DNA of 10,930 nt, from IMG/VR virus record IMGVR_UViG_2684622580_000009. One strand, given 5' to 3'. How positions within the stretch are numbered: position 1 is the stretch's first letter; every line of letters starts with the position of its first letter. Below are positions 1,005 through 8,882 of the stretch, piece by piece. Below the pieces are notes generated by a model that did no database searches, was not told where the DNA came from, and saw nothing but the letters and a program-made list of their open reading frames with translations. The translations under genes were made by a program, and so were the position numbers. The DNA comes from a virus. Its lineage: Duplodnaviria; Heunggongvirae; Uroviricota; Caudoviricetes.

Positions 1005-1580
1005 CTACGGCAGTGCTGGCCATTCAATATCCTGTGCAGTTGACGTATCAACACGGTTCAGCAACACCCGATACTTTTTCCAGGCTTCCAGCAATGAGGT
1101 TTCTTCCTCCGTTGCGATTTCCAGATCTACAGCATCCTGAAGTGGCGCAATATGCTCACTGGCTACCTGCATCAGGCTGTTTTTTGTTTCTTCCGCCTCT
1201 CGGATCCGGAACAGTTTTTCTGCTTCTGCATCTTTCACCCAGGCTGTGCCGTTCCACTTCTGAAACTCCCCTTCCGGCGATAACCAGGTAACATTTTCCG
1301 GTAACGGACCGAGTTCAGAAATAAATAACGCGTCCCCTGACGCTACGTCATAAACCGTTTTACCCCGATGGTCTTCAACGAGATGCCACGATGCCTTATC
1401 ACTGTTGAAAACAGCCACAAAGCCAGCAGGAATATCTGGTGGTGCAATATCGGTACTGTTTGCTGGCAGACCTGTATGAGGCGGAATATATGCGTCACCT
1501 TCACCAATAAATTCATTAGTTCCGGCCAGCAGATTATAAATTTTTATGGTCCGTGGTTGTTCACTCATTCTGAATGCCAT
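1005..1580 (-). CDS. tfa: Tail fibre assembly protein (lambda Tfa-like), 191 aa
   Basis: Near-identical over its length to recalled lambda Tfa ([54 protein letters not shown]...); sits immediately downstream of the stf-derived ORF with a start/stop overlap at 1580. Confidence 0.9.
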
Positions 1581-2626
1581 TATGCAAGCCTCACAATATA
1601 GTTAAATGCGATGTTTTTGACGGTGTTTTCCGCGTTACCAGCAGCGTTAACGGTGATGGTGTGTCCATGTGAACCAATCGCAACGGAGTGCGTGTGTGCA
1701 CCAATACCGACAGTATGTGCGTGTGCACCTGCAGATGCTGCTGTGCCGGACAGTGAGTGGCTATGGTTACCATCTGTACTGGTATTAGCTAACGCCCCCG
1801 TAGACATACCTACTGAGCCTTGTACACCCCAGGTATTTTGACCTGAGCTTGTATAACCATATTGATAAGTATCTTTAAAAACACTGGGGTTAAATCGACG
1901 GCCATCTCTATGGCTGTGATTACCAGCTGCATTCGTGCTGCCACTTAAACTATGGGTATGCGCACCAGTGTTATTCGTGGATTTAGTGCCGTAATCAAAC
2001 GACGATGTGGTTTTCGTCCCCAAATCCGTACTGGATGCGCTGGCGCTGTGGGTATGCGATTTAATGCCGTCCTGTTCCTGAGACAATACGGCCCGACCAC
2101 TGGCAGGTTTGCCCTTAATCGTCCAGCCACGCATATCAGGGATCACGCCTGACGGATAAGCGGCTGCAAGTTTCGGGTATGCAGATTTGTCAAAAGTCTG
2201 CCCCTGCATCAGGGCATAGCCAGACGGAACGGTATCTGATGGCCACGGGATTGGTGCGCCAGGCGGATAAAACTGCTCTGATGGCGTATAGAGTGAATAA
2301 ACTGTACCGTCCGTTAACCCTTCCGGCTTATTAGCAGAATATGCTGGTGACGTATGAATCGTCACGTTGGCATTACTGGTATAACCGACACGGGCAGACT
2401 TCACCACATTCACCTCGCGGATGTAGTCGCTGCCCATCGCATTCATGATGGCCCGCTGAAAGGGCAGTGTTTCCCAGCGCCCTTCCTGGTATGCGGATTC
2501 TTTCGGGAGATAGTAATTAGCATCCGCCCATTCAACGGCGGTCTGTGGCTCCGGCCTGAACAGTGAGCGAAGCCCGGCGCGGACAAAATGCCGTAGCCTG
2601 TTAACCTGACTGTTCGATATATTCAC
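1580..2626 (-). CDS. Chimeric ORF: terminase large subunit A N-terminus (about 83 codons) fused in frame to the C-terminal region of side tail fibre Stf (about 265 codons)
   Basis: Residues 1-83 ([83 protein letters not shown]) match lambda gpA N-terminus; the remainder ([11 protein letters not shown]...GAHTHS...[29 protein letters not shown]) matches the lambda Stf C-terminus with its His-rich GxHxH repeats. Start overlaps the Nu1 3' end as in lambda. Junction near 2376-2379. Confidence 0.85.
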
Positions 2627-4088: not shown

Positions 4089-4382
4089 ATGAAAAAAATG
4101 TTGTTTTCTGCCGCTCTGGCAATGCTTATTACAGGATGTGCTCAACAGACGTTTACTGTTGGAAACAAACCGACAGCAGTAACACCAAAGGAAACCATCA
4201 CCCATCACTTCTTCGTTTCGGGAATTGGACAGGAGAAAACTGTTGATGCAGCCAAAATTTGTGGCGGCGCAGAAAATGTTGTTAAAACAGAAACCCAGCA
4301 AACATTCGTAAATGGATTGCTCGGTTTTATTACTTTAGGCATTTATACTCCGCTGGAAGCGCGTGTGTATTGCTCACAATAA
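4089..4382 (+). CDS. bor: Bor lipoprotein (serum-resistance, lysogenic-conversion cargo), 97 aa
   Basis: MKKMLFSAALAMLITGCAQQ signal peptide with lipobox LITGC; matches recalled lambda Bor. RBS AGGATAA upstream of the ATG at 4089. The ORF-track start at 4041 is probably an upstream in-frame extension. Confidence 0.9.
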   Translation: MKKMLFSAALAMLITGCAQQTFTVGNKPTAVTPKETITHHFFVSGIGQEKTVDAAKICGGAENVVKTETQQTFVNGLLGFITLGIYTPLEARVYCSQ

Positions 4383-4413
4383 TTGCATGAGTTGCCCATC
4401 GATATGGGCAGCT

Positions 4414-4944
4414 CTATCTGCACTGCTCATTAATATACTTCTGGGTTCCTTCCAGTTGTTTTTGCATAGTGATCAGCCTCTCTCTGAGGGTGAAATAATC
4501 CCGTTCAGCGGTGTCTGCCAGTCGGGGGGAGGCTGCATTATCCACGCCGGAGGCGGTGGTGGCTTCACGCACTGACTGACAGACTGCTTTGATGTGCAAC
4601 CGACGACGACCAGCGGCAACATCATCACGCAGAGCATCATTTTCAGCTTTCGCATCAGCTAACTCCTTCGTGTATTTTGCATCGAGCGCAGCAACATCAC
4701 GCTGACGCATCTGCATGTCAGTAATTGCCGCGTTCGCCAGCTTCAGTTCTCTGGCATTTTTGTCGCGCTGGGCTTTGTAGGTAATGGCGTTATCACGGTA
4801 ATGATTAACAGCCCATGACAGGCCGACGATGATGCAGATAACCAGAGCGGAGATAATCGCGGTTATGCCCGTGACATACAGTCCATACACCAACAATATC
4901 TTTATATGGTATGTAGCTGACACCTTCCAGACCATCGTCACCAC
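4414..4944 (-). CDS. Rz: Rz-like i-spanin, 5' end replaced: lambda Rz homology runs from 4414 to about 4866; the ATG at 4944 is non-native
   Basis: From [14 protein letters not shown]... to ...KYINEQCR the product is near-identical to recalled lambda Rz from codon 5 onward. The first roughly 26 codons of this ORF are instead out-of-frame endolysin DNA. Native Rz start and RBS are absent. Confidence 0.8.
4473..4655 (-). CDS. Rz1: Rz1 o-spanin lipoprotein, 60 aa, embedded in the +1 frame of Rz
   Basis: [60 protein letters not shown]: lipobox VVGC and proline-rich segment, near-identical to recalled lambda Rz1. Confidence 0.85.
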
Positions 4945-5029
4945 TCGGACCAGTGATGAGCACAGACGCTATGGCAACAGCCCCACCACCAATAGCAGCT
5001 GCTACAGCCTTGCGTAATGATGGCGACAT
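4805..5029 (-). pseudogene. rrrD: Truncated SAR-endolysin (phage 21 R / RrrD-type lysozyme): only the first 55 codons are retained, followed by 19 out-of-frame codons
   Basis: [55 protein letters not shown] matches the SAR signal-anchor and start of the catalytic region of P21-type endolysins. The frame then runs into Rz DNA and stops at 74 aa, where a complete enzyme is about 165 aa. Start overlaps the holin stop (TAATG). Confidence 0.8.
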
Positions 5030-5244
5030 TATTCACCTCTCGCAGCCTTGCGCTTATCTTCTTTAATCTTGAAATAAAGGTTTGTCAGGTACGTCAGCAG
5101 GCCAAATACCAGGCTACCCAGCACTCCAATTGCCGCCCACTGTGAGGGCGTGACTTTATCTAGCAGCTGTAAAAACCAGTACCCGGCACTACCTGCTGAG
5201 GTGCCATAGGCGACACCCGTTGTTAACTTATCCATGGATTTCAT
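5029..5244 (-). CDS. essD: Class II holin / pinholin (phage 21 S-type, EssD-like), 71 aa, with dual-start motif
   Basis: [71 protein letters not shown]: two TMDs and a charged C-terminus; Met1-Lys2-Ser3-Met4 gives the antiholin/holin dual start typical of S21. Confidence 0.88.
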
Positions 5245-5357
5245 AACCCCACCTCGCAGACAAAGCGGGTGTAAATTGAGGGAATACTACGAAACGTAAC
5301 AGACTCGGAGTCAGTGAATAACTCAGGTATTGGGTTATCAGCTAATATCGAGACTCA

Positions 5358-5389
5358 AAAAATGGAAAAACCCGCTCGACGGCGGGTTT
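5358..5389 (-). terminator. Candidate rho-independent terminator on the minus strand, about 115 bp upstream of the holin start
   Basis: Minus-strand read: CCCGC-cgtcga-GCGGG stem-loop followed directly by TTTTTCCATTTTTT. The plus-strand read has only TTT after the stem. Confidence 0.55.
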
Positions 5390-5816: not shown

Positions 5817-6914
5817 ATGAAAAAATTAACAGTGGCAATTTCTGCTGTAGCTGCATCAGTACTGATGGCGATGTCTGCTCAGGCAGCTGAAATTTATAAT
5901 AAAGACAGTAACAAGCTGGATCTGTACGGGAAAGTTAATGCTAAGCACTACTTCTCCTCTAATGATGCAGATGATGGTGATACTACTTATGCCCGTCTTG
6001 GCTTCAAAGGTGAAACCCAAATCAACGATCAACTGACTGGTTTCGGTCAGTGGGAATATGAATTCAAAGGCAACCGCGCTGAATCTCAAGGTTCCTCCAA
6101 AGACAAAACCCGTCTTGCATTTGCAGGCCTGAAATTCGGTGACTACGGCTCAATCGATTACGGCCGTAACTACGGTGTAGCATACGACATCGGTGCGTGG
6201 ACTGACGTTCTGCCAGAATTCGGTGGCGATACCTGGACCCAAACAGATGTGTTCATGACTGGTCGCACCACTGGTGTTGCAACCTATCGTAACAACGACT
6301 TCTTTGGTCTGGTTGATGGTCTGAACTTTGCTGCTCAGTACCAAGGCAAAAACGATCGTAGCGATTTCGATAACTACACTGAAGGTAACGGTGATGGCTT
6401 CGGTTTCTCTGCTACCTATGAATACGAAGGATTCGGTATCGGTGCAACTTATGCGAAATCTGATCGTACCGACACTCAAGTTAATGCAGGGAAAGTTCTT
6501 CCTGAAGTATTTGCTTCCGGTAAAAATGCAGAAGTTTGGGCCGCAGGTCTGAAATATGACGCTAACAACATTTACCTGGCCACTACCTATTCTGAAACCC
6601 AGAATATGACTGTATTTGCTGATCACTTCGTTGCTAATAAAGCCCAAAACTTCGAAGCTGTTGCACAATATCAGTTCGATTTCGGTCTGCGTCCGTCCGT
6701 TGCTTACCTGCAATCTAAAGGTAAGGATCTTGGAGTATGGGGCGATCAGGACTTAGTCAAATATGTTGATGTAGGTGCAACCTATTACTTCAACAAAAAT
6801 ATGTCTACTTTCGTTGATTACAAAATCAACCTGCTTGACAAAAATGACTTCACTAAAGCACTCGGTGTAAGCACTGATGACATCGTTGCTGTAGGTCTGG
6901 TTTACCAGTTCTAA
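5817..6914 (+). CDS. nmpC: Outer-membrane general porin, NmpC/OmpD/Lc-type, intact, 365 aa precursor
   Basis: Signal peptide [23 protein letters not shown] then [17 protein letters not shown]..., C-terminal VGLVYQF beta-barrel terminal motif with terminal Phe; matches recalled NmpC. The ATG at 5817 is preferred to the upstream ATG at 5757 because it starts the signal peptide and has a purine-rich stretch upstream. It sits opposite to the late genes between Q and S, as in DLP12/PA-2. Confidence 0.9.
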
Positions 6915-7103: not shown

Positions 7104-7487
7104 TTAATTAGAGTTATTAACAACGATATCCATCTCTAACCGGATATCTAATGCCATTAACATCCCTTCAATTATGCCCTCAGCCTTCTGTAACCTTTTC
7201 CCGATATAACCATCAGAGCAGCAATGCTTACCTGCCAGTGACATGAATGTCATACCGACTACATAATAATCTACTAATAAATCGTGCAAATCGCTGTTGT
7301 TCTTTTTCAGACGGGCCATGCACCCGCAAATGATCATCGCGTCATCGTCACAACATTGCGGGCGAGATTTTACTTTTGAAGGAATTAATCCCTTAAAACC
7401 GGCGGCAATGGACGACCAGGTCACATCTTCATGATTATTAGCCGCCCACGCTCCCCAACGTTCAAGAACCATCTGAATATCACGCAT
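7104..7487 (-). CDS. quuD: Late-gene antiterminator Q (phage 82 / QuuD-type), 127 aa
   Basis: [60 protein letters not shown]... matches recalled QuuD/Q82, including the Cys-rich zinc-binding region. The ORF-track start at 7502 adds 5 upstream codons; the ATG at 7487 is preferred. Confidence 0.88.
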
Positions 7488-7654
7488 TAACTTTCTCCAC
7501 AAAATCAGGCCAGCACACCAATCGCCAGTGCGCGATCGATAAAACGAAATATCAGCTCCAGCTGGGAGCCATACTTCTCTTCAAATGCCACGGTACCCGT
7601 TATTCTAAAGATCTTGCAGATGAAGGCACCCGCTGCTTTATCGATGCCGATAAT

Positions 7655-8218
7655 ATGCGTGCCGTCAGTGTGCTTAACCTGGGTACTATTGATGAGCCAG
7701 GTCACGCAGATAACACTGCCACTCTCAAACTGAAAAAGACAGCACCGTTCTCTGCTCTGTTGTCTGTTAACGGCGAGCGTAACTCCCAGAAGTCACTGGC
7801 AGAATGGATCGAAGACTGGGCCGACTACCTTGTGGGCTTTGATGCTAATGGTGACGCCATTCAGGCAACAAAAGCGGCTGCGGCAGTCCGTAAAATCACG
7901 ATTGAAGCAAACCAGACCGCTGATTTTGAAGATAATGACTTCAGCGGCAAACGCTCCCTGATGGAGTCTGTCGAAGCGAAGACCAAAGACATTATGCCAG
8001 TGGCATTTGAATTTAAATGCGTTCCGTTTGAAGGTCTGAAAGAACGTCCGTTTAAATTACGCCTCAGCATTATCACTGGCGATCGTCCTGTACTGGTTCT
8101 GCGCATTATTCAGCTGGAAGCGGTGCAGGAAGAAATGGCTAACGAATTTCGTGATCTGCTTGTTGAGAAATTCAAAGACAGCAAAGTAGAAACCTTTATT
8201 GGTACTTTCACCGCCTGA
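7655..8218 (+). CDS. yfdQ: YfdQ-like (DUF2303) protein; possibly a 5'-truncated remnant
   Basis: Assigned mainly by synteny, directly upstream of an unmistakable yfdR-yfdS-yfdT run. The reading frame stays open about 58 codons upstream of the ATG at 7655 with no in-frame start, extending to within a few bp of the quuD start, which suggests a truncated longer gene. Confidence 0.5.
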
Positions 8219-8345: not shown

Positions 8346-8882
8346 ATGTCATTTATTAAAACTTTTTCCGGGAAGCATTTTTATTATGACAAGATAAATA
8401 AAGACGACATCGATATTAACGATATCGCGGTTTCCCTTTCAAATATCTGTCGCTTTGCCGGTCATCTTTCGCACTTCTACAGCGTCGCCCAACATGCGGT
8501 TCTTTGCAGCCAGCTGGTGCCGCAGGAATTTGCTTTTGAAGCGTTAATGCATGATGCAACAGAAGCGTATTGCCAGGACATTCCCGCACCACTGAAACGC
8601 CTTCTTCCTGACTATAAACGGATGGAAGAAAAAATAGACGCCGTAATCCGTGAGAAATACGGGTTACCCCCAGTTATGAGTACACCCGTGAAATATGCCG
8701 ATCTCATCATGCTGGCAACCGAACGCCGCGATCTCGGGCTTGATGATGGCTCTTTCTGGCCTGTACTGGAAGGCATCCCGGCAACAGAGATGTTCAACGT
8801 GATTCCACTGGCACCGGGTCATGCCTACGGGATGTTTATGGAACGTTTTAACGATTTATCGGAGTTACGCAAATGCGCATGA
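8346..8882 (+). CDS. yfdR: HD-domain 5'-deoxynucleotidase YfdR-like, 178 aa
   Basis: MSFIKTFSGKHFYYDKINKDD...CRFAGHLSHFYSVAQHAVLCS...LMHDATEAYCQDIP carries the HD-superfamily H...HD metal-binding motifs and matches recalled E. coli YfdR. RBS GGAGA 5 nt upstream of the ATG at 8346. Confidence 0.85.
   Translation: MSFIKTFSGKHFYYDKINKDDIDINDIAVSLSNICRFAGHLSHFYSVAQHAVLCSQLVPQEFAFEALMHDATEAYCQDIPAPLKRLLPDYKRMEEKIDAVIREKYGLPPVMSTPVKYADLIMLATERRDLGLDDGSFWPVLEGIPATEMFNVIPLAPGHAYGMFMERFNDLSELRKCA

Follow-up and report, generated by a model that had tools for sequence, protein, structure and literature searches.

The closest described relative of the locus analysed here is the lysis module of DLP12 in E. 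coli K-12 (essD, rrrD/ybcS and rzpD/rzoD), which occupies the same chromosomal site and whose genes carry the same RefSeq names. The K-12 operon is reported to be transcribed, to respond to Q, RpoE and Hha (PMC7918800; PMC2408971) and, when cloned and over-expressed, to bring about cell lysis (PMC7918800). A K-12 double mutant of ybcS and rzpD/rzoD that keeps the holin shows a 2.4-fold increase in vesiculation (PMC7918800). The other well-described relative is phage 21, in which the holin S21 and the endolysin R21, with lambda-type Rz/Rz1, provide the full lysis pathway. Pinholins assemble into heptameric channels of ~2 nm that collapse the PMF (PMC9636201), and cells in which the phage-21 pinholin is triggered die (PMC9239132); the small channels of S21 68 depolarise the membrane without release of cytoplasmic endolysin. 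The cassette of our locus is also found, intact, in the lambdoid phages PhiR30_1 (99.7%) and 434 (96.2%).

The window (the whole stretch of DNA that was analysed, 10,930 nucleotides) is a remnant of ~11 kb at the DLP12 site, and in matching genomes its intD gene adjoins tRNA-Arg and fimZ. The minus strand carries the late genes, those for lysis among them. Their order (Q, porin, S, R, Rz, bor, nohD) is of the DLP12 type, and the genome of KSC9 and six others match the window end to end at 99.9%. K-12 DLP12 has the same succession of quuD, an oppositely oriented porin gene, essD, rrrD, rzpD and bor. However, the prophage in the window is far more reduced: set beside fuller relatives, it retains hardly any head or tail genes and only a minor part of the early region. 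Whereas the four lysis genes of K-12 DLP12 are intact, the window carries an endolysin pseudogene and an Rz gene without its start, and 340 bp are missing between them. We consider it very probable that the locus bears the scar of a deletion, that the surrounding DLP12-type lambdoid remnant at tRNA-Arg/intD is a prophage in decay and that the cassette left behind is non-lytic, with neutral decay as the most likely cause. The features on which this reading is based are as follows.

7104..7487, minus strand: quuD (Q-type antiterminator), coding sequence intact, upstream early region deleted (RefSeq WP_001204780.1 in all copies; homology to fuller prophages ends at 7599).
5368..5389, minus strand: terminator-like hairpin and T-run upstream of essD (consensus scan only).
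5029..5244, minus strand: essD, class II (phage-21 type) pinholin, 71 aa, dual start M1-K2-S3-M4, intact (Pfam, identity to intact EssD).
4865..5029, minus strand: 5' remnant of rrrD, native codons 1-55, with SAR anchor and E35-D44-T50 (identical to codons 1-55 of intact RrrD).
4864..4865, minus strand: deletion junction, 2-bp TA microhomology (prefix/suffix comparison with APEC E19025).
4805..4864, minus strand: out-of-frame tail of the rrrD remnant, 19 codons and a TAA stop, a wrong-frame reading of Rz codons 5-24 (ORF list, sequence).
4414..4863, minus strand: Rz (i-spanin) codons 5-153 and stop, TMD and periplasmic domain intact, ATG, codons 1-4 and SD deleted (identity to intact Rz, Pfam).
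4473..4655, minus strand: Rz1 (o-spanin lipoprotein), 60 aa, embedded in the +1 frame of Rz, intact (Pfam, lipobox, SD).

An earlier note, made from the sequence of the window alone, had proposed that a single deletion of roughly 340 bp joins endolysin codon 55 to Rz codon 5, and had suggested aligning the region to an intact S-R-Rz cassette. A megablast search of 5,426 complete E. coli genomes provided such a reference in the chromosome of APEC E19025 (NZ_CP126931), which matches both halves of positions 5300..4380 (minus strand) at 100% and is annotated with essD, a 165-aa rrrD and a 153-aa rzpD. The lysis interval of APEC E19025 is 1,261 bp long, and its counterpart in the window (5300..4380, minus strand) is 921 bp. 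Compared base by base, a prefix of 437 nt and a suffix of 486 nt are both 100% identical, and the reference is longer by exactly 340 bp, which fixes both end points and turns the proposed size into an exact one. Mapped onto APEC E19025, the sequence before the junction ends with rrrD codon 55 (CAT) and that directly after it begins with Rz codon 5 (ACC), so that in reference coordinates rrrD codon 56 is the first codon missing and Rz codon 4 the last. The deletion takes away 110 codons of the endolysin, the ATGA overlap of stop and start, the ATG of Rz and the SD that precedes it; the removal of the Rz start and ribosome-binding site had likewise been foreseen. The resulting ORF (5029..4805, minus strand) overlaps the essD stop by 1 base and encodes 74 aa, namely 55 native RrrD residues, from a Gly/Ala-rich anchor to ...GVWTVCHGH, followed by an unrelated out-of-frame tail of 19 residues. 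This is the departure from the lysozyme frame after ...VCHGH that the note had read from the translation.

The two flanks share 2 bp, TA, at window positions 4865-4864. In the intact APEC E19025 interval, a repeat search gave no repeats, direct or inverted, that line up with the end points. A repeat- or hairpin-mediated deletion was considered and rejected, as the nearest pair of repeats has a spacing of 359 nt instead of 340 nt and an offset of 10-30 nt. The comparison shows one deletion, and from the sequence of its flanks it looks like a single event of illegitimate recombination at minimal (2-bp TA) microhomology.

We also examined how widely this junction is distributed, as the earlier note had proposed. 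A 40-mer probe able to seed only across the junction was found in 19 of the 5,426 complete E. coli genomes (0.35%), with one chromosomal copy in each. The junction always lies within the same ~11-kb remnant at the tRNA-Arg/intD site, and every one of the 19 complete genomes that carry this remnant has it; over the whole 10.9-kb window these genomes are 99.8-99.9% identical to our sequence. Seven copies were sampled, from pig, chicken, cat, human, river water and wastewater and from the USA, Thailand, Japan, South Korea and New Zealand. All seven have the same EssD and QuuD accessions, the 150-aa RzpD call, the lysozyme pseudogene and the other pseudogenes, and none differs from the window at any position in 4380-5300. 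The out-of-frame tail makes the 74-aa product a signature of this junction, and the exact product occurs on 489 contigs in a public protein collection, where it is labelled lysozyme and where every contig that carries a name is assigned to E. coli. An exact junction-spanning 32-mer had no match in one-per-species representative genomes and none in metagenome contigs, and the 25 phage matches listed are all of the intact, two-piece form, none with the deletion. A sequencing or assembly artefact, or several small independent lesions, would be a barely credible explanation of these data, given one clean 340-bp gap whose flanks both match an intact reference at 100% and an identical junction in 19 independent assemblies as well as on hundreds of contigs. 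The simplest reading of these sequences is a single origin followed by vertical inheritance in one E. coli lineage.

The endolysin remnant retains part of what defines a SAR endolysin. Its N-terminal signal-anchor-release segment (residues 8-26) is the same as in intact RrrD and, like R21, it has a Gly/Ala-rich SAR anchor followed by E-8X-D-5X-T. This Glu-8X-Asp/Cys-5X-Thr arrangement, kept as E35/D44/T50 in the remnant and the intact protein alike, is the catalytic motif of T4-lysozyme-type enzymes (PMC3556154, PMC9239132). The complete two-lobed lysozyme domain (GH24, T4-lysozyme family) is not present, as the C-terminal lobe is gone: the 74-aa ORF aligns to Pfam Phage_lysozyme over positions 3-26 of 125 (24 kept) with 22.2 bits against a cutoff of 22.3, whereas intact RrrD aligns over positions 3-125 with 153 bits. 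The intact protein is ~97% identical to the solved structures of RrrD and R21; the copy in the sister prophage matches 4ZPU (K-12 RrrD) at E=1.5e-109 and 3HDE (R21) at E=5.8e-109. Since the cleft of the lysozyme fold sits between its two lobes and the C-terminal lobe has been lost, the remnant can safely be taken to be inactive. The proposal that the catalytic body of R had been removed thus holds for the C-terminal lobe but not for the catalytic motif, which is still there. By its sequence, the rrrD remnant is a pseudogene and not a functional member of the SAR-endolysin family, and the RefSeq entry already treats it as such ('lysozyme, incomplete, missing C-terminus'). What is left of the protein amounts to a membrane anchor and an N-terminal lobe.

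Upstream of the lesion, the pinholin gene is unaltered. EssD matches Pfam Phage_holin_2_1 (PF04971), the 'Bacteriophage P21 holin S' family, over positions 1-63 of 64 (E=2e-35; 121 bits, cutoff 26), and it is the same sequence as EssD of the intact prophage, with WP_000839596.1 assigned in intact and deleted genomes. As in phage 21, there is a dual start (ATG AAA TCC ATG, M-K-S-M, at 5244-5233), and an SD duplex of -7.9 kcal/mol lies upstream. In such dual-start motifs the antiholin is made from Met1 (with Lys2) and the holin from Met4. In a hydropathy profile of EssD, residues 36-54 alone pass the threshold (1.72); the Gly/Ala/Ser-rich residues 8-28 fall below it, as expected of a SAR-like TMD1, and we read the protein as having two TMDs, the first weakly hydrophobic and releasable and the second strongly hydrophobic. 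The description of an undamaged dual-start pinholin upstream of the deletion is therefore borne out.

The spanin genes are affected unequally. Rz1 lies within the 486-nt flank that is 100% identical to APEC E19025 and, as the note had said, is undamaged: it matches Pfam Rz1 (PF06085) at E=2.9e-20, has its own SD (-8.3 kcal/mol) and shows a signal-peptide-like hydrophobic stretch with a lipobox Cys (...VVGC|TSK). Residues 5-153 of Rz are identical to the intact protein, in agreement with the claim that Rz homology resumes in another frame from its fifth codon, and the match to Pfam Phage_lysis (PF03245) covers the whole profile (E=4e-54), with the N-terminal TMD and the periplasmic coiled-coil domain kept. 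What the gene lacks is a start codon and a ribosome-binding site of its own. On the minus strand, the reading frame of Rz is uninterrupted between 4944 and 4414, and it contains two candidate starts upstream of the native sequence, GTG at 4944 and ATG at 4935. We found no good replacement among the candidate upstream starts, the best of which pairs with the anti-SD at -3.8 kcal/mol, compared to -5.4 (Rz) to -8.3 (Rz1) kcal/mol for native lysis-gene starts. In the junction-bearing genomes, RefSeq (PGAP) annotates rzpD as an unflagged 150-aa CDS (WP_052318784.1) from an ATA at 4866; this ATA (4864-4866, minus strand) was created by the deletion and shares bases with the His55 codon of the endolysin remnant. 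On 165 contigs, other pipelines have instead called a protein of 173 aa that begins with the ATG at 4935. Both forms are products of the deletion, called by homology or as ORFs.

These annotations raise the question of whether the endolysin alone has been lost, with Rz still made from the ATA at 4866 or the ATG at 4935 and the spanin pair functional. In the latter case, Rz would have 173 aa, a 24-aa N-terminal extension replacing native residues 1-4, and this extended form is predicted to keep one strong hydrophobic segment. The frame open from 4944 and the existing 150-aa and 173-aa calls speak for such a protein. However, those calls are no proof of translation, the best candidate SD is weak beside those of the native lysis genes, and ATA is a very poor initiator codon. 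In addition, under the three-step model of lysis, a spanin without an endolysin restores no lysis. We therefore regard a working Rz as unlikely, although some i-spanin might be made from the open frame. The sequence shows that the i-spanin gene is left without start codon or ribosome-binding site, with the pinholin essD and the o-spanin Rz1 untouched, and no observation speaks against this structural account. From it, we infer that the cassette can no longer lyse the cell, as muralytic activity is absent and Rz is probably made in small amounts or not at all. Phage 21 with its lambda-type Rz/Rz1 completes the full pathway; the copy in the window would not, since it lacks the muralytic step.

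Whether the remaining genes are ever strongly expressed is a separate question. Between quuD and Rz, the window is 99.9% identical to the intact prophage, and the late signals that follow Q have therefore presumably been preserved. The hairpin at 5389..5368 sits where a Q-antiterminated late terminator is expected, a role we infer from the organisation of lambdoid late operons. Upstream of quuD, however, there are just the final 96 nt of a DUF968 gene, followed by a divergent gene on the other strand, and a consensus scan of the minus strand found no sigma-70-like promoter upstream of quuD. At this early-region deletion joint (~7505-7600), the DUF968 fragment abuts an N-terminally truncated DUF2303 gene (7595-8218, other strand). 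With quuD deprived of its upstream early region and of a detectable promoter, Q-driven expression from the remnant alone is doubtful, and strong late transcription may never occur in it. Any Q would probably come from another prophage, or the operon may answer to host-controlled promoters as in K-12 DLP12. Should it be strongly transcribed, the pinholin would trigger and the PMF would collapse, killing the cell without lysis; by analogy with the pinholin literature, it is reasonable to expect strong expression to be toxic but non-lytic.

The K-12 double mutant (PMC7918800) is the nearest laboratory genotype, as the holin is kept and the functions of endolysin and i-spanin are removed. However, the mutant also lacks Rz1, while in the allele of the window Rz1 is present, the Rz frame is open and a SAR-anchored fragment of 74 aa remains, and the two differ in host background and prophage state as well. 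By this analogy, basal expression of the cassette is likely to give a phenotype similar to that of the engineered mutant, with endolysin-dependent wall turnover lost and more outer-membrane vesicles.

The lysis lesion is not the only deletion in this remnant. A sister remnant in strain E14 has suffered the large loss from terminase to tail fibre, yet its rrrD and rzpD are intact; the large loss therefore came first. Compared to E14, the lineage of the window has three extra deletions: the 340-bp deletion, one of ~130 bp at the terminase/tail-fibre joint and a large one in the early region ending at ~7599. As judged by this comparison, all three are shown to be later than the terminase-to-tail-fibre loss and specific to the lineage. 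On the simplest reading, the 340-bp allele arose once and is inherited in a single E. coli lineage whose remnant carries at least two other deletions of its own. Losses have continued among its members. WWCOL-315 and CUVET21-37 have a further deletion of ~420 bp that truncates yfdR (window positions 8434-8851 are absent), and an IS26-bounded segment replaces the yfdT-intD end of the remnant in L3Cip3. Taken with the other deletions, these further losses suggest that the lysis lesion is one step in an ordinary, continuing decay, and neutral decay rather than a selected change is the most likely origin of the 340-bp deletion.

A selective explanation deserves consideration because of what is known of the K-12 module, which is reported to be transcribed and to affect cell-wall maintenance and OMV output, and because loss of the DLP12 lysis module in Shigella has been described as pathoadaptive (PMC7918800). 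The deletion could have detoxified a domesticated lysis module: loss of endolysin and i-spanin would be advantageous, for instance if fewer peptidoglycan fragments were released, vesiculation changed or the cell was spared accidental lysis, and a host function would explain why the pinholin and Rz1 were retained. The presence of the allele in 19 of 19 complete genomes with this remnant, and the unchanged EssD and QuuD in the seven sampled copies, would fit such a history. However, the sampled copies show no differences at all in 4380-5300, and copies this near to identity make an unchanged essD uninformative on selection. The same remnant has other, plainly degradative deletions, its relatives are still losing yfdR and the int end, and the lineage accounts for a small share of complete genomes. 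We know of no benefit to a host from a lethal holin without its partner. Detoxification of this kind is quite unlikely in our view, and it is very unlikely that an endolysin-minus, i-spanin-minus allele was selected with the pinholin kept as a non-lytic, depolarising switch for death or dormancy. If the allele were a selected one, vesicle production or the release of peptidoglycan fragments would be altered in a lineage that is largely livestock-associated among complete genomes.

The significance of the locus beyond annotation is small: events of this type are well known, and the pseudogene status of the lysozyme is already recorded in RefSeq. It does offer a clean, dated case of the stepwise decay of a prophage in which a lethal holin outlasts its lytic partners, and the allele is a natural counterpart to the published K-12 mutant with a vesiculation phenotype. 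For annotators, the 150-aa rzpD and a terminase::tail-fibre 'phage tail protein' are better handled as deletion products. The latter (1580-2626, minus strand; WP_072020952.1, an ordinary 'phage tail protein' by its RefSeq name) is a 348-aa in-frame fusion in which ~81 residues from the N-terminus of a lambda-type large terminase subunit precede the C-terminal portion of a tail fibre. E14 has two pseudogenes here, one for each part, set ~130 bases further apart; the ~130-bp deletion in the window has 3-bp TAA microhomology at ~2382-2384 and restored the reading frame.

Several smaller observations concern the rest of the window. The two moron genes, which benefit the host and encode an NmpC-like porin (5817-6914, plus strand) and a Bor/Iss serum-resistance lipoprotein (4089-4382, plus strand), are intact and identical in all sampled copies, while the phage functions around both are decaying; the porin gene is antisense to the late operon, and Pfam assigns the oppositely oriented gene at 4089..4382 to Bor. 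In the His-rich tail-fibre repeat region at 1694-1795, the same 8 substitutions in 102 bp set the window apart from the seven sampled RefSeq copies and E14. Six of the eight are silent and two adjacent ones give A278W; elsewhere, the compared copies are identical to the window or have 1-6 further differences. By its sequence, this tract looks like a short gene conversion from another copy of the tail-fibre gene. Finally, a search of Rfam at the gathering threshold found no known RNA family in the lysis region, and its only match in the window was a full-length IS009 at 1039-1237 (minus strand, 226.7 bits), which lies inside the tail-fibre-assembly gene (1005-1580, minus strand).
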